Shown here piece after piece: positions 20,957 to 27,041 of a DNA stretch of 64,000 bases. Position numbers and translations under genes: made by a program. The notes beneath the pieces are model-generated. The model was given only the letters and a program-made list of their open reading frames with translations. It had not been told where the DNA came from and made no database searches. The stretch lies in the sequence record MW175414.1; one strand, 5' to 3'. The DNA comes from Escherichia phage VEc25. The number at the start of each line of letters is the position of its first letter. Position 1 is the first letter of the stretch.

Positions 20957-22276
20957 ATGTATAAAAGTACTACTAAGCTGCCACTAAATCCTGGTCAAGA
21001 GGCAGCGGCAGAAGGCTTCTTCGACTTTCTGCTCGACCCCAATGCTTCTGAACTTCGTATTAGTGGACCTGGTGGTACAGGCAAGACATTTACAATGGCT
21101 CATATGATTGACGAGATTATGCCCCGTTATCATGAGACATGTAGTCTGATGGGAATCCCTGCTCTCTATAACGAAGTTATTATGACTGCTACTACTAATA
21201 AGGCAGCAGAAGTATTAGCCCGTGCAACAGGGCGTCCTACGTCTACCTATCATTCCTTTCAAGGTCTGACAGTACGGAATAACCTAAAGACTGGGGAAGC
21301 AGACCTGATTCCGTCTAAGTCCTTCAGTATCAAAAAGAATAAGGTCATTTTTATTGATGAAGCATCAATGATTGACCGTAAACTGAAGAAGTTTATTAAC
21401 GAAGGTACTCACCAAAGTAAGATTGTTTACTTAGGCGATAAATGCCAATTGTTACCTGTAAAGGAAACTTCTTCACCTGTCTACAATGACAGTAGCATTA
21501 AAGAGTTTATGCTGACCCAGCAGATGCGTACTGATGTCCCTGAACTCCATGCACTGCATGAACAGCTTCGTGGAACCATTGAAGGTAAGCACGGATTCCT
21601 GCCTATTAAAGCAGTTCCGGGTATTATCGACTGGATTGAAGATGGTGATGAAATGAGAAAAGAAGTCAAAGGTCATTTCATGACTAAGACTGACACTCGT
21701 ATTGTTGCCTATACCAACCAACAGGTTGTTAACTATAACACCTTCATTCGAGCCATGAATGGATTCCACGGAGAGTTCTGTATTGGTGAAGAGTTAGTAA
21801 GTAACTCTGCTATTCAGATTGGTGCTGGTGACCGCCTCAGTATTGAACAGGAATGCCAGATTGTTGACCAGGATTCTGCTACTCGTAAGATTCTGATTGA
21901 TTCCTCTGGCATCGAATTAGAAGTACGTGATTGCACCCTGGATACTGGTTATGGTGGTGTCTTTGAAGGTATCCCTATTCCGGTAGATATGGATTATTTC
22001 ATTCGTTTGCAAAAGTACTATGCACACCAAAAGAACTGGGAACGTCACTTCTATTTGAAAGAAACATTCCCTGAACTTCGAGCATTACATGCTTCTACTG
22101 TGCATAAGTCTCAAGGTTCTACCTACGACACCATCTTTATTGATGCTACTGATTTATCTACTTGCCGTCAGCCTGATGTAGTAGCACGTCTGCTTTATGT
22201 AGCAGTATCTCGTGCTCGTCATCGTGTTGTGTTCTATGGCTCTTTGGCAGAGAAATTTGGTGGTCTGGTTCGCTAA
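20957..22276 (+). CDS. SF1 DNA helicase (Dda/RecD-like)
   Basis: Walker A GPGGTGKTF; Walker B VIFIDEASM; motif VI-like STVHKSQGSTYD. Confidence 0.7.
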   Translation: MYKSTTKLPLNPGQEAAAEGFFDFLLDPNASELRISGPGGTGKTFTMAHMIDEIMPRYHETCSLMGIPALYNEVIMTATTNKAAEVLARATGRPTSTYHSFQGLTVRNNLKTGEADLIPSKSFSIKKNKVIFIDEASMIDRKLKKFINEGTHQSKIVYLGDKCQLLPVKETSSPVYNDSSIKEFMLTQQMRTDVPELHALHEQLRGTIEGKHGFLPIKAVPGIIDWIEDGDEMRKEVKGHFMTKTDTRIVAYTNQQVVNYNTFIRAMNGFHGEFCIGEELVSNSAIQIGAGDRLSIEQECQIVDQDSATRKILIDSSGIELEVRDCTLDTGYGGVFEGIPIPVDMDYFIRLQKYYAHQKNWERHFYLKETFPELRALHASTVHKSQGSTYDTIFIDATDLSTCRQPDVVARLLYVAVSRARHRVVFYGSLAEKFGGLVR

Positions 22277-22285
22277 GGAGAACTT

Positions 22286-22813
22286 ATGCAACTGGGTGAA
22301 AAACAAATCCGTGAAATGACTAATAGTAGTGAACTGGTTCAGGAATTATTCTTAGCCGAGTTACGTCGGCTAGATAAAGTACTGGATAGTATTATTACAC
22401 GTAATGGGGAAACATTCGCTGTATACAACTCAACAGGGTTCCTGTATTTAGGGGAGTTCTATTCGAGTTCCCGTTCATCACAACAACCCCCTTCTGGTCA
22501 TCGTCTGGCTCTAGCTAATCACCTACTGGATGATATGCGGGAGTATCTGGAACAAGCAGGTAAACTTCTGCTAGAAGTCCATATGGTAAATCAGATGGTC
22601 TTTCGTCTGGTTCAGGGCTGTAAAACTTATCAAGACGTTCGTGATGCATTGCCAGAATGCCTCATTGCTATGGATAAACAGGGTCATCTGAAATCCTTAC
22701 AGAGAACCAGAAAGGCAGCATTTACTCTGGATAATGATGCTATGGCTCTCCGTCAGTATGAGAAAATCTTACCGATTATCGAATACTATGCGGGAACCCA
22801 TCTTATCTTTTGA
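22286..22813 (+). CDS. Hypothetical protein
   Basis: ORF between the helicase and the DNA polymerase. Confidence 0.4.
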   Translation: MQLGEKQIREMTNSSELVQELFLAELRRLDKVLDSIITRNGETFAVYNSTGFLYLGEFYSSSRSSQQPPSGHRLALANHLLDDMREYLEQAGKLLLEVHMVNQMVFRLVQGCKTYQDVRDALPECLIAMDKQGHLKSLQRTRKAAFTLDNDAMALRQYEKILPIIEYYAGTHLIF

Positions 22814-22820
22814 GGTCTGT

Positions 22821-24785
22821 ATGCGTCACATTACATTCAACAATGAGGGTATCTACCCTATTGCTATCCTTACTACAACGTTACGTAAGGATGATATTGT
22901 CAAAGCATACATGGAACCCTGGGATGTAGATAAAGATTCAGTAATGATTCTTGAACTTCATACAGCCCCAGGGAAAAAGAAAACTCCTGCTAAAGAGATG
23001 CAGGAGTTTATTACCCAAGAATTAGTGCCAGCATTCGAAGCAGCACAAACTCAGTATATCATCTGTGGTGATTCTGAATATTACAAACAGCTAACCAAAC
23101 AAGGTAAAGCTGATGCCAATATTGGCTATGTAATGGATTGTGCTTATGGGAACCAGAAAGTTATTTACGTTCCCAATTACAGACAAATCTTTTATGACCC
23201 GGATAAGGTAAAGACTAAGATTGCTTTATCTATGCAGGCTCTGATTGATTATGTCTCTGGTTCTTATGTTGAGCCAGGAACTAAGATTATCCACTATGCT
23301 GATTATCCATTAACTCCAGAAGCTATATCTAAGTGGTTAGATAAGTTACTGGAGATGAATGTTCCGTTAGCAGTGGATATAGAAACTTTCAGTCTGAAGC
23401 ATTATGACTGTGGTATAGGCACTATTACATTCTGCTGGAACAAGCATGAAGGGATTGCATTCCCTGTGGATTATGAACCAATTGAGGGGGCTACTGAAGC
23501 TCCTTATGGTAGACAAGTTCACAACATGCTTGTTCGTTCTATGCTCAGGGACTTTTTTATTAAGTATCTGAACAGGCAGATGTATCACAATATTGCCTTT
23601 GACGTATATGCACTCATTTACCAGTTATTTATGACAGACCTTCTGGATACGGAAGGGTTGTTGCATGGCATGAGTATCATGCTAAGAAACTGGGATTGCA
23701 CTAAGTTAATTACCTATCTGGCCACTAATTCTTGTGCTGGTAATAAGCTAAGTCTTAAAGACCAGGCTCAGGAATATGCTGGTAACTATGCTCAAGAAGA
23801 AATCAATGACATTACCAGAATCCCATTAGCAGAGTTGTTGGAATACAACTTAGTGGATGGATTATGTACCTGGTATGTCTATGAAAAGCATTGGGATACT
23901 CTGGTTAATGACCAACAGTTAGATGTTTATACAAACATCTTTAAACCTGCATGTGAAGATATTATTCAAATGCAGTTAACTGGTATGCCTATCAATATGA
24001 AGACAGTATTGGAGGTAGAAGAGGCATTAACCCAAGACTATAACAATGCGTTAAAAACAATTGCTGACAGTAAAGTAATCAAAGATTTTACCCGTCTTCT
24101 TAATGAAGAATGGGTAGAAAAACAGAACCAGATTCTGAAGAAGAAACGAGTGACTTTAGCTGATGCTAAAGAGCAGTTTAATCCAAACTCAGGTATTCAA
24201 TTACAGAAGCTACTTTTTGAGTTTCTGGGGTTACCCGTACTGGGTCTGACTGCAAGTAAACTACCTGCTACTGGTAGTGGCATACTCAAGTCTTTGAAGA
24301 ACCATACTCAAGATACCAGTATTCTGGAAATTCTTGATGCTCTGATTGATTACAAAGCTGTAGATAAAATTCTGACAGCATTTATTCCAGCATTAAAAAA
24401 TGCCAGACAAGGACCAGATGGTTGGCATTATCTCTTTGGTAATCTGAACTTAGGTGGGACTGTATCAGGCCGTCTATCCAGTAGTGAACCAAACCTACAG
24501 AACCTACCTTCTGGTTCCAGATATGCCAAGATGATTAAAAAGTGTTTTGAGGCTCCCCCTGGGTGGATATTCTGTGGGCTAGACTTTGCTTCTCTCGAAG
24601 ACCGTATATCTGCTTTAACAACCAAAGACCCTAACAAGCTGAAGGTGTACATGGGTGTGACTGTTTATACAGTTACTATAGAAGGAGTTGACCATCATAT
24701 CCGAGATGATGATACAATCGTTTATGATGGTAAAACTTATACCGGTGAGGAGTTCTATGACGCTTTTACCCGTGGCCTTCTATGA
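22821..24785 (+). CDS. Family A DNA polymerase, N-terminal part (3'-5' exonuclease plus palm motif A)
   Basis: Exo I-like LAVDIETFS; motif A-like GLDFASLEDRI. The ORF stops about 60 codons after motif A; motifs B and C lie in a separate downstream ORF. Confidence 0.7.
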   Translation: MRHITFNNEGIYPIAILTTTLRKDDIVKAYMEPWDVDKDSVMILELHTAPGKKKTPAKEMQEFITQELVPAFEAAQTQYIICGDSEYYKQLTKQGKADANIGYVMDCAYGNQKVIYVPNYRQIFYDPDKVKTKIALSMQALIDYVSGSYVEPGTKIIHYADYPLTPEAISKWLDKLLEMNVPLAVDIETFSLKHYDCGIGTITFCWNKHEGIAFPVDYEPIEGATEAPYGRQVHNMLVRSMLRDFFIKYLNRQMYHNIAFDVYALIYQLFMTDLLDTEGLLHGMSIMLRNWDCTKLITYLATNSCAGNKLSLKDQAQEYAGNYAQEEINDITRIPLAELLEYNLVDGLCTWYVYEKHWDTLVNDQQLDVYTNIFKPACEDIIQMQLTGMPINMKTVLEVEEALTQDYNNALKTIADSKVIKDFTRLLNEEWVEKQNQILKKKRVTLADAKEQFNPNSGIQLQKLLFEFLGLPVLGLTASKLPATGSGILKSLKNHTQDTSILEILDALIDYKAVDKILTAFIPALKNARQGPDGWHYLFGNLNLGGTVSGRLSSSEPNLQNLPSGSRYAKMIKKCFEAPPGWIFCGLDFASLEDRISALTTKDPNKLKVYMGVTVYTVTIEGVDHHIRDDDTIVYDGKTYTGEEFYDAFTRGLL

Positions 24786-25302
24786 ACAACGGTATAAGAT
24801 TTCCGATGAAGGTTTCATCTTAAATCTTGCAAACAATCAACCCCTAAAACCGACTCTCAATCCTAACGGATACCTTAAGGTTGGGTTAGCTAATGGGGAT
24901 GGTACACATCACCAAGAGCTACTTCATATTCTGGTAGCTAAACACTTCATCCCTAATCCTTATGGCTATGAACAGGTGAACCATAAAGATGGTAATAAAC
25001 TGCATTGTCATAAGGATAATCTGGAATGGTGCTCTGCTACTCAGAATGTTGAACATGCACTTAAAACAAGGCTACGTCCTGGTTACATGTCTGCTGACGA
25101 TAAAGAAAAGTATCTCTTTGAGGTGCTGGCAGGTAAGCAAGTTAAAGACATTGCTTTTGAAATAGGTAGACGTCCTGAAACTTTGCATAAGATGCTCAGA
25201 ACTACTGCTGACCGACTTGGTGTTCGAAATGAGTGGGATGATGTTATGAGGAGAAATAGAAAAGATGTTGCTTTACGACAGCTTGCCAAAATCAACTCAT
25301 GA
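24757..25302 (+). CDS. HNH homing endonuclease (HNH_3-like) inserted in the DNA polymerase gene
   Basis: Own gaggag RBS and ATG; N-terminal YKISDEGFILNL and core NHKDGNKLHCHKDNLEWCSATQN; lies in a third frame between the two polymerase ORFs. Confidence 0.6.
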   Translation: MTLLPVAFYEQRYKISDEGFILNLANNQPLKPTLNPNGYLKVGLANGDGTHHQELLHILVAKHFIPNPYGYEQVNHKDGNKLHCHKDNLEWCSATQNVEHALKTRLRPGYMSADDKEKYLFEVLAGKQVKDIAFEIGRRPETLHKMLRTTADRLGVRNEWDDVMRRNRKDVALRQLAKINS

Positions 25303-26095
25303 CTTCACTGGCAAGAAAATTGACAACGTAGTCAAAGCCGGGAGTTCATCAGGTTACGACGGGCATAGTCTACGTGCATATGCTTACTTCGGTGAGATGA
25401 TGCCTGACATTGAAGATACGGTAGAGTCTGTTAATTCTATTCAGGAGAAGTACAAAGCATATCGTCAGGATTCTAAAGCACCTACCTTTGCTCTTACCTA
25501 TCAGGGCACGTATATCACTTTGATGAAGAACTGTGGTTTCCCTGAACAGAAAGCTCGAATGGTTGAGGAACGTTATCACACACTTTATAAGGTAAGTGAT
25601 GACTGGGTTCAGGCTAAACTAGACCAAGCTGCAAAAGATGGTTATGTAACCGTAGCATTTGGCCTGAGAGTCAGAACCCCCTTACTTCAACAAGTTATCC
25701 GTGGAACCAGTAAAACTCCTTATGAAGCTGAAGCTGAAGGACGTACTGCTGGTAATGCATTAGGCCAAAGTTGGTGTCTTCTGAATAACCGTGCTGGTTC
25801 AGAGTTCATGCGTAAGGTACGGAATAGTAAGCATCGTCTTGATATTCGTCCAAGTACCCATATCCATGATGCTCAGTATTTCCTTATCCGTGATGATATG
25901 GATGTTGTGATATATACCAATACTCATTTGGTGAAAGCAGTACAATGGCAAGACCATCCTGATATTGCTCATCCAGATGTTCATTTGGGTGGGGAACTCT
26001 CCTTATTCTACCCAACGTGGGCTAACGAGATTGAGATTCCAAACTACGCTACGCCCGAACAAGTCCATGAAGCAATCCAAAAGGCATTTAAATGA
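25265..26095 (+). CDS. Family A DNA polymerase, C-terminal part (fingers/palm, motifs B and C)
   Basis: DGHSLRAYAYFG (Pol I DIHRATA-like), motif B-like SKAPTFALTYQGTY, motif C-like STHIHDA. Confidence 0.65.
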   Translation: MLLYDSLPKSTHDFTGKKIDNVVKAGSSSGYDGHSLRAYAYFGEMMPDIEDTVESVNSIQEKYKAYRQDSKAPTFALTYQGTYITLMKNCGFPEQKARMVEERYHTLYKVSDDWVQAKLDQAAKDGYVTVAFGLRVRTPLLQQVIRGTSKTPYEAEAEGRTAGNALGQSWCLLNNRAGSEFMRKVRNSKHRLDIRPSTHIHDAQYFLIRDDMDVVIYTNTHLVKAVQWQDHPDIAHPDVHLGGELSLFYPTWANEIEIPNYATPEQVHEAIQKAFK

Positions 26096-26430
26096 CCAAA
26101 CAAATTGAAGAGAAAAAGCATCACTGGTTAGTAGCAGCTCAACTGACTTTTGTTATTCCTGATAACAAAGATGGTCAGGAAGGTGCTGTTATTGTTCAGA
26201 ACACTATGCTGCTTACTGAAGAGAAACAGGTAACTTTCCGTGACCTGGGACGTGCTCAGTCTGCTCTGTTTCAGAATCTGAATGACCGTTTTGGTCAAGT
26301 GGTAGATGTACGGGATATTGTATTCCTGAACGTCAGCTACTTGGGTCATATGAGCCAGCCTGACTTTCAGCAAAATCTGGTAACTAAAGATACTGCTGCG
26401 AAGAAAGCTAAACTGAAAGCTGTGGAGTAA
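26092..26430 (+). CDS. Hypothetical protein
   Basis: ORF with ATGA overlap to the polymerase C-terminal ORF. Confidence 0.4.
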   Translation: MTKQIEEKKHHWLVAAQLTFVIPDNKDGQEGAVIVQNTMLLTEEKQVTFRDLGRAQSALFQNLNDRFGQVVDVRDIVFLNVSYLGHMSQPDFQQNLVTKDTAAKKAKLKAVE

Positions 26431-26432
26431 TC

Positions 26433-27041
26433 ATGTCTGAAAAACTATCAGGTGGTTTTAATAACTACTATCTGGTTCAGGTAACCAACCCTCAACGTAT
26501 GGAACAGCCTCCATATCAGGCCGAGTGTGAGGATATTATCCAAGCACTAAATATGACCTTTGATGAAGGGTGTCTGTTCAAGGCATTGTGGCGTAATGCT
26601 GCTGCTCGTTTAGGTAATGGTAAACCAGGTAACAGTGCCGTTTATGATGCAGAGAAGATGATTCATTATGCTAACCGTATTTTTACTAAAGAATCCGGTG
26701 GGCAGAAAAAAGAAGCAGAAGAACCAATCTCTGAAGCTCTGAAGAAGGGTGAAGAGATTCATATGTCTCTGTCTGAATTATTCACCCTGTTAACTGGTGA
26801 AGCAGCAGAAGGTGAAGTAATGAGCCTTGCTGGTTGGCATACCCATGTACCCAACCGTTTGGGTGTTATGCCTGTTGCTGTTGCAATGAGCAAAGCAGAA
26901 CAAGTTGATGTAGTACGTGCCGATGGAACGACTATTACTCATGTATTTCCTCATGAGATTGACTGGTCTGATAAGATTGCCCCCTTTGCTCGAATCACTG
27001 CATGGCGTTTCAGTAACCCATCTAAGGTCGCTTCTAAATGA
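26433..27041 (+). CDS. Hypothetical protein
   Basis: ORF in the replication module. Confidence 0.4.
   Translation: MSEKLSGGFNNYYLVQVTNPQRMEQPPYQAECEDIIQALNMTFDEGCLFKALWRNAAARLGNGKPGNSAVYDAEKMIHYANRIFTKESGGQKKEAEEPISEALKKGEEIHMSLSELFTLLTGEAAEGEVMSLAGWHTHVPNRLGVMPVAVAMSKAEQVDVVRADGTTITHVFPHEIDWSDKIAPFARITAWRFSNPSKVASK

Follow-up and report, generated by a model that had tools for sequence, protein, structure and literature searches.

The locus at positions 22821-26095 of the Escherichia phage VEc25 sequence (record MW175414.1), within a stretch of 64,000 nucleotides (nt) hereafter called the window, raises the question of how a family A DNA polymerase can be made from two open reading frames (ORFs) that are separated by a third, encoding an HNH endonuclease. 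An initial annotation, made from the letters alone, had left the choice between a group I intron carrying a homing endonuclease, as in the SPO1 polymerase gene, and a gene that a free-standing homing endonuclease has divided into two polypeptides. Of the two, the split has stood and the SPO1-type intron has not, given the lack of an intron core, the coding content of the whole insert and the existence of relatives that lack the HNH gene. It is highly probable that a free-standing HNH homing-endonuclease cassette divides the polymerase into two genes, with neither an intron nor an intein involved. The locus is a further case of the known "genes-in-pieces" phenomenon, in that an endonuclease gene with its own translation signals lies between halves that are continuous in close relatives, and the downstream half has its own ribosome-binding site (RBS) and start codon. 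What is new here is that the two peptides added at the break, a tail and a head, belong to the mobile cassette, are under strong selection at the protein level, outlive the endonuclease and mark out a sizeable group of family A polymerases made in two pieces.

The divided polymerase gene and its cassette

The three ORFs were found as first described, on the + strand in frames 0, 1 and 2 and with overlaps of 29 nt and 38 nt: polymerase part 1 or N-fragment (22821-24785, 654 amino acids (aa), TGA stop at 24783-24785), the HNH homing endonuclease gene with its own RBS (24757-25302, 181 aa), and polymerase part 2 or C-fragment (25265-26095, 276 aa). The longest ORF for part 1 opens at 22734, and this mechanical extension of 87 nt upstream of 22821 overlaps the last part of gp38 (22286-22813); the annotated N4 gene starts at the ATG at 22821, which is conserved in the window. 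The region 22500-26400 is 98.8-99.2% identical to the Enquatrovirus N4 isolates AlfredRasser, vB_Eco_SPSP, BEU phages, PMBT57, Jura and AL25. N4, OLB145 and 3HA13 match the window region at 98-99% in two blocks, without the middle segment, and in both N4 and 3HA13 the polymerase gene is uninterrupted, the N4 polymerase gp39 being a single ORF of 859 aa (22821-25400).

Alignment to the N4 polymerase, a check proposed in the initial annotation, places the insertion precisely. It is ungapped up to 24649/24650 and resumes from 25352, so that the cassette occupies 24651-25351 (+ strand), 701 nt in place of the 6 nt ACCGAT of N4. Where N4 reads ...KVY-TD-GYDGH..., the window reads ...KVY followed by a tail of 44 aa and a stop, and then a Met and the remaining 28 aa of a head before GYDGH.... 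The net insertion is thus 695 nt, and its exact removal gives back the N4 frame. Each of the 701 nt belongs to at least one of the three coding frames. In all nine lineages compared the distance from KVY to GYDGH is either 701 or 695 nt, and the alignment columns are identical for the tail stop, for the RBS and ATG that serve the HNH gene and for the RBS and start of part 2. The Shine-Dalgarno sequence of the C-fragment, GAGGAG (25248-25253, +), is embedded in the HNH gene and precedes the ATG at 25265 by 11 nt; a block ATGA(A/G)G(A/G) and the C-fragment ATG (GTG in lineage L018) share the same column in 9 lineages. No promoter-like excess or terminator was found inside the region.

Both fragments carry recognisable and well-preserved polymerase sequence. 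The native portion of the N-fragment (22821-24650, +; 610 aa) contains the 3'-5' exonuclease motifs, the thumb and the palm as far as motif A and ...DPNKLKVY, is colinear with N4 gp39 at 97.6% identity, and matches Pfam DNA_pol_A over residues 433-610. That of the C-fragment (25352-26095, +) comprises the fingers (motif B) and what remains of the palm (motif C), also matches DNA_pol_A and is colinear with gp39 at 98.8% identity. The distribution of motifs given in the initial annotation could be located residue by residue, with Exo I DIET (23370-23393), Exo II HNIAFD (23583-23615), Exo III YNLVD (23838-23864) and motif A DFASLEDR (24576-24605) in part 1, and motif B RQDSKAPTFALTYQG (25463-25507) and motif C HIHDAQ (25859-25876) in part 2. 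The full set of family A hallmarks, Exo I-III and motifs A, B and C, is colinear with gp39 and merely shared out over two fragments. The ratio of nonsynonymous to synonymous substitution rates (dN/dS) in the flanking polymerase exons, 0-0.12, indicates purifying selection on both halves. KVY aligns to R630-V631-F632 of Taq polymerase and GYDGH to G635-H639, and the split point, equivalent to Taq 632/633, is by the Klentaq domain definitions the palm-to-fingers transition, just after motif A. Because the chain that carries the Asp of motif A lacks the O-helix (motif B) and motif C, which belong to the other chain, the fragments must associate to form one active site.

The endonuclease gene is preceded by the Shine-Dalgarno sequence GGTGAGGAG (24744-24752, +, read from the sequence), which lies inside the coding sequence of the tail. 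Its frame is open from 24688, and the ATG at 24757 is the start backed by comparison with relatives: homologous cassettes keep a purine-rich block followed by an ATG, and codon-position statistics gave no coding signal upstream of this ATG in the HNH frame. The product has an N-terminal NUMOD4-type beta region, the motif VNHKDGNK...DNLEW (24976-25047) and a C-terminal helical region. The early assignment to the HNH_3 type holds, since Pfam HNH_3 (26.1, cut-off 24.8) and NUMOD4 (23.8, cut-off 23.4) both exceed their thresholds. The protein also matches PHROG 59 (1.5e-35) and, at E=8e-10 over residues 6-103, in the N-terminal and HNH regions, the structure of I-HmuI (PDB 1U3E), the His and Asn of the HNH motif being aligned. 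A NUMOD4-type beta region and a beta-beta-alpha HNH motif with its catalytic His and metal-binding Asn, the marks of the I-HmuI-like family, are therefore both found, and the dN/dS of the gene, about 0.07-0.10, shows purifying selection. Of the link to SPO1 made by the initial annotation, this kinship is what survives: the enzyme is related in sequence to I-HmuI, which the SPO1 intron encodes, but an intron is not supported here. We infer its target site and cleavage chemistry.

Taken together, we envisage the cassette as three overlapping ORFs, tail, endonuclease and head, which would be co-transcribed. The tail would extend and then terminate the upstream polymerase frame, and an RBS, a start codon and the 29-aa head would restart the downstream one. 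Two polypeptides, of 654 aa (exonuclease, thumb and motif A) and 276 aa (motifs B and C), would then associate non-covalently, with splicing of neither RNA nor protein. In mixed infections the I-HmuI-like enzyme would nick or cut cassette-free polymerase alleles near the insertion point, cleavage being expected near AAGGTGTATACCGATGGTTACGATGG in N4, and recombinational repair would copy the whole cassette into them (homing). The tail, a predicted beta-meander and helix, and the head may act together to assemble or stabilise the fragments, which would be a parallel to the element-derived tails of the split NrdA of phage Aeh1.

Several comparisons indicate that the cassette is mobile and laterally transferred. 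It is present or absent among Enquatrovirus genomes that are otherwise more than 98% identical. Against Pollock, identity is 86-96% across 24621-25320 and 40-68% in the rest of the polymerase. The protein P0006 (652 aa) joins a Gamaleyavirus-like body to the tail of Klebsiella phage Pylas (L006, Humphriesvirinae), at 100% identity, which shows exchange of the cassette between subfamilies. The kinship of the endonuclease with I-HmuI also bears on mobility. Differences are also clustered at the junction: relative to the cassette-free 3HA13 there are four synonymous differences in the last 16 nt before it, on a background of 1.2%, and relative to N4 there are 11 differences in the last 130 nt. 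This cluster fits co-conversion or drift of the target site, without proving either.

Tail and head peptides of the cassette

The tail (24651-24785, +, 44 aa and a TGA stop, MGVTVYTVTIEGVDHHIRDDDTIVYDGKTYTGEEFYDAFTRGLL) and the head (25265-25351, +, 29 aa, MLLYDSLPKSTHDFTGKKIDNVVKAGSSS) have no counterpart in N4; the initial annotation had noted about 40 and 30 extra residues at these places, unmatched in Pol I or T7 polymerase. They are not mere extra material, though, but conserved peptides borne by the cassette. Over the 105 nt outside the overlap with the HNH gene, the tail has a dN/dS of 0.04-0.12 in the polymerase frame, the same range as in the polymerase flanks and the HNH gene, and its substitutions fall 19/34/92 at codon positions 1/2/3 of that frame. 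For the head the ratio is 0.06-0.27, and 0.45-0.64 against Pylas. Both peptides are present and conserved among relatives, including those without the HNH gene.

In an AlphaFold2 model of part 1, built with 17 tail-bearing homologues, the exonuclease and thumb regions are modelled well and the orphan palm segment (545-610) has low confidence. The tail forms strands at 615-620, 623-628, 632-635 and 638-641 and a helix at 642-650, with a predicted local distance difference test (pLDDT) score of 61-77. With part 2 modelled as a single chain, the head (1-32) is coil. The Pfam matches of both polymerase parts end short of the tail and the head, neither peptide has a meaningful match among the PHROGs, and the tail shows no similarity to the N-terminal domain of the HNH protein (p=0.9). 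The idea that the tail is a copy of the downstream polymerase (YDGK.. against YDGH..), or the head a copy of the upstream sequence, was rejected, as shuffling gave p values of 0.26-0.59 in three of four lineages.

Two features of the tail stand by themselves. In L018 the end (IYDGKEMRADAYF) of the tail at about 1395-1523 resembles the polymerase just past the cassette (GYDGHSLRAQAYY), with a score of 43 and p<0.0005, probably through secondary recombination between two YDG-coding stretches. The His codons of the tail motif HHIRDD (24691-24730, CCATCATA ... TATGATGG) are CAT-CAT in nine of nine lineages, against 54% CAT elsewhere in those genes. Together with the TATGATGG of the YDG codons, CAT-CAT can form an invariant hairpin that lacks covariation. 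This bias hints at a constraint at the nucleotide level (RNA or DNA structure, an endonuclease site or a regulatory site) on top of that on the protein.

The cassette is widespread. Homologous cassettes occupy the same site in Pollock (Humphriesvirinae, 90% nucleotide identity), in SP5M and PD205 (Gamaleyavirus, 76-77%), in Pylas (71%), in the IMG/VR contigs L010-L018 and in the metagenome contig L008; the last was pointed to by three short ORFs, all that a word-indexed protein search returned for the 44-aa tail by itself. An exhaustive search of 1.84 billion representative proteins with a profile hidden Markov model built on the tail gave 33 cluster representatives that bear it, and no unsplit polymerase with an internal tail was among them. 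The tail ends the protein in all full-length matches; the product P0154, which extends about 50 aa beyond it, reads through the TGA of the tail, probably as a result of a code-4 gene call. Wherever enough upstream sequence exists, the tail always follows the ...LEDRISALTTKDPNKLKVY of a family A polymerase, ending in ...KDPNKLKVY. Full-length N-fragments are 37-53% identical to that of the window in the body and 50-64% in the tail, whose conserved core is HHIRDDxTIx[YF]DGKxYTGxEFY. When clustered at 90% identity, the C-fragments that bear the head, with the consensus M.QF.TL.[KR]ST.EIP.GA..SIK.VG.TDGYDGH, form at least 47 clusters of proteins of about 276-288 aa. In the five divergent contigs encoding P0130, P0135, P0137, P0141 and P0150, the order is N-fragment, a gene of about 180 aa and C-fragment, with helicase and gp38-like genes upstream. 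In four of these contigs the three genes overlap throughout, and in that of P0150 the C-fragment call opens 80 nt past the HNH gene. Gamaleyavirus-like polymerases are mostly unsplit, about 118 of the 120 best matches of part 1 being proteins of 859-860 aa.

Most telling against an intron are the relatives that have lost the endonuclease. L026, taken from an N4-like contig of 56.7 kb, and L027, from a second metagenome sample, keep the split, the tail and the head without an HNH gene. Their N-fragment ends in ...KVYMGHIVYELKIDGIIHNIRDDASIEYNGKTYTGEEFYEAYCSL and a stop, and 36 nt further on a 276-aa C-fragment starts with MTHFGTLEKSAIKIPSGAKISIKEIGKTDGYDGH; in L026 (7978-8019) the spacer of 36 nt holds the HNH gene cut down to a YEGRYPI remnant. 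In L022 (342-614) the split, tail and head remain with a C-terminal HNH remnant only. Such loss is the expected end-stage of the homing-endonuclease life cycle, except that here the host gene stays in two pieces for good.

It could still be argued that the split is real and that the tail and the head are neutral left-overs of the insertion, namely a stretch of read-through and a handy start site, with no part in assembly. Conservation would then be imposed in part by the HNH gene, whose 5' end overlaps part of the tail and whose 3' end overlaps part of the head; the confidence of the AlphaFold2 models is moderate or low; and in the study on Aeh1 (PMC3045599) the tails of NrdA are reported to be dispensable for heterodimer formation itself. 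The 105 nt of tail free of any overlap with the HNH gene are nevertheless under the strong selection described above, the core motif persists in N-fragments whose bodies have diverged to 37-53% identity, and tail and head are kept after deletion of the HNH gene. We therefore consider neutral left-overs improbable. Strong selection, retention after loss of the HNH gene and the precedent of Aeh1 NrdA all suggest that the tail and head serve the polymerase fragments as a module for assembly or stabilisation. A stronger form of this proposal, for which we put the chances at about even, is that they constitute a co-mobile, site-specific re-assembly adaptor that clamps the palm-side and fingers-side fragments together, is required for activity, and so represents a third self-neutralising strategy. 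If that were true, the adaptor cassette would stand beside introns and inteins as a strategy, having spread laterally through the polymerases of the Schitoviridae, and in some lineages it would have outlived its endonuclease and founded a stable two-subunit family A replicase.

Splicing and other alternatives

A group I intron would be an insert of about 695 nt that is spliced from the mRNA, leaving a single polymerase of 859-861 aa. It accounts for the exact return of the N4 frame upon removal of 695 nt and for the likeness of the endonuclease to the intron-encoded I-HmuI, and true group I introns are present in phage family A polymerase genes, those of N4-like phages included. Nevertheless, the covariance-model search that the initial annotation had proposed was negative in five cassette versions: no match to the Rfam group I model (RF00028) or to any other ribozyme was obtained in 22000-27000 at E<=10, and none to group I at E<=1 in L003, L004, L006 and L008 (Pollock, SP5M, Pylas and L008 itself). 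The positive control, the intron of PhAPEC7 (L007), was found at E=1.9e-6. There is no non-coding sequence within the 701 nt. RNAalifold on the nine cassettes left the 3' side unstructured (-0.9 kcal/mol) and gave on the 5' side only the invariant hairpin, with no informative covariation. The tail, which would be the 5' segment of the intron, evolves as protein in the exon frame and is therefore unlike a spliced-out segment, and the RBS and ATG of the downstream half are conserved. The 36-nt spacer of L026 and L027, which keep the split, leaves no room for a ribozyme, and the comparable insertion of phage 10Gb gave no spliced product (bioRxiv 10.1101/542787). We thus regard an intron as very unlikely at this site.

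The control is itself informative. The PhAPEC7 element (L007 2140-2880) is another HNH insertion in the same polymerase, situated after ...GRLSASEP and before NLQ..., and matches Rfam Intron_gpI with 38 bits at 2565-2818; relatives of this intron occur in 298 phage records, mostly of T7-like phages. Since the intron lies at SEP/NLQ and the cassette at KVY/GYDGH, mobile elements have two distinct hot spots in the N4-family polymerase.

A split intein, with the tail as its N-terminal part, the head as its C-terminal part and protein trans-splicing around a free-standing endonuclease, is more doubtful still, and we give it almost no weight. In its favour, the order of host N-part with extension, endonuclease gene, and extension with host C-part is that of the "fractured genes" (PMC2677866), and a relative, L023/L024, has the C-part of a split intein elsewhere in the same polymerase. 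The initial annotation had ruled out an intein on the strength of the three frames, and these indeed contain stops; in addition, catalytic residues are lacking and no Hint or intein domain is matched in Pfam. The heads end in G-x-[ST]-x before GYDGH, with no His-Asn, and the tails begin with M, Q, T, V, I, S or L, never with Cys or Ala, so that the terminal residues are wrong for an intein in all homologues compared. The genuine C-part in L023, which ends ...DIYVHN before S, displays what the canonical signature looks like in this very protein family. A Hint fold requires at least about 130 aa, and the 44 and 29 aa of tail and head (73 aa) make up about half of the smallest one. As the extensions lack intein signatures, any rejoining of the fragments must be non-covalent. 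The polymerase of L023 (1-1576) and L024 (983 nt, 1-983), protein P0134, is apparently in three pieces, with an HNH ORF, the split-intein C-part (...VYDLEIEEDHCYIANDIYVHN followed by SDPNLTNLP) at SEP/NLQ, a short middle polymerase segment ending in the tail, and an I-HmuI-like HNH gene in this order, so that a fractured-gene split intein and the tail cassette are found within one gene.

Ribosomal bypassing or frameshifting was considered and rejected, the gap being 695 nt that are all translated in other frames and the downstream half having its own conserved start. Finally, a sequencing artefact, the frameshift-error objection entertained by the initial annotation, or a dead polymerase gene has nothing in its favour beyond the unusual look of the region and is hardly conceivable, because the structure recurs at 98.8-100% identity in the records of 11 Enquatrovirus genomes sequenced independently, and in diverged forms in many other genomes and metagenomes, its carriers are viable plaque-forming isolates according to the record descriptions, both halves are under purifying selection, and no second polymerase match was noticed in the region.

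Some points weigh against the division into two genes by a free-standing cassette, or against parts of it. The two-polypeptide product is predicted for this phage by comparison, and the insertion of 10Gb is likened to it by description, the same cassette being present in the Gamaleyavirus genomes SP5M and PD205. Not all subtypes of intron are captured by the Rfam group I model. The activity and target site of the endonuclease are predictions, the confidence for the tail in AlphaFold2 is moderate (61-77) and the head is coil in chains that were modelled singly, and the role in assembly proposed for both peptides is argued from conservation and analogy. The records of AlfredRasser (MZ501049, L002 822-4096) and Pylas (MH899585, L006 948-4228) annotate a join, that is, a two-piece coding sequence (CDS), as would suit an intron.

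Public records of near-identical phages describe the locus inconsistently, and those of Pollock, SP5M, SPSP and Jura give two polymerase CDSs and an HNH gene. The joined CDSs are probably mis-annotations and the two-gene description the right one.

Comparison with known systems

Our literature search for a split N4-type polymerase of this kind returned the 2019 preprint on the G7C-like phage 10Gb alone (bioRxiv 10.1101/542787). Its gene 39 has an insertion of about 800 bp that encodes a homing nuclease and is negative in Rfam; reverse transcription PCR revealed no splicing, two polypeptides were obtained on expression and confirmed by matrix-assisted laser desorption/ionization time-of-flight mass spectrometry, and a Shine-Dalgarno sequence and an ATG were noted for the C-terminal fragment. 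As in the window, then, the gene of an N4-family polymerase is broken by the insertion of a homing nuclease, a likeness that we draw from the description in the preprint. Conserved tail and head peptides, a wider family and HNH-less derivatives are not described there.

The introns of SPO1 and SP82, with I-HmuI, and those of the phiI/W31/PhAPEC7 type likewise reside in family A polymerase genes. Their endonucleases sit in splicing ribozymes, whereas no ribozyme was detected for the cassette, and the intron of the PhAPEC7 type is recognised by Rfam and lies at SEP/NLQ instead of KVY/GYDGH. Fractured genes (Dassa et al. 2009, PMC2677866) have the same three-part order, but the extensions found here are without intein signatures and too short.

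Known members of the genes-in-pieces class are genes 43A and 43B of the Aeromonas phages 25 and 44RR and genes 39 and 60 of T4 with mobA, in which a replication enzyme is split at or beside a free-standing endonuclease gene, as it is here (PMC2988022). The enzymes are a family B polymerase and a topoisomerase and the endonucleases are of the seg and mob kinds, in contrast to the family A polymerase and the I-HmuI-like enzyme of the window. The split family B polymerase fragments of phage 25 co-purify and are active, and for gene 43 the endonuclease is a possible cause of the split (PMC2988022).

Although the division of a gene by a mobile element is unsurprising in principle, the locus offers a clean and unusually well-sampled system to study how such elements offset the harm done when an essential enzyme is split. 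N4 (or 3HA13) and the phages of the AlfredRasser type form a tractable pair that differ essentially by the cassette, in which the re-assembly of a fragmented enzyme, and the question whether tails borne by an element are a general means to it, could be followed, and a natural split point at the palm/fingers boundary, supplied with complementation peptides, could serve enzyme engineering.

A close parallel of the same class is the nrdA-a/mobE/nrdA-b locus of phage Aeh1 (Friedrich et al. 2007 PNAS; Crona et al. 2011 NAR, PMC3045599). In both, a free-standing endonuclease is inserted in an essential replication-related gene, the active-site residues are split over two polypeptides and the endonuclease gene overlaps the downstream half. 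The Aeh1 host gene encodes a class Ia ribonucleotide reductase and not a family A polymerase, and mobE is described only as a mobile or homing endonuclease, whereas the enzyme of the window is I-HmuI-like. The tails of the Aeh1 NrdA, which derive from the element, are essential for activity (PMC3045599), and this is the role that the tail and head may play in the polymerase. Aeh1 was presented as a single case; the polymerase cassette, traced by sequence, is found together with its tails in many diverged polymerases and outlives its endonuclease, and would represent a second, far more widely sampled solution of the Aeh1 type to the fragmentation of a gene.

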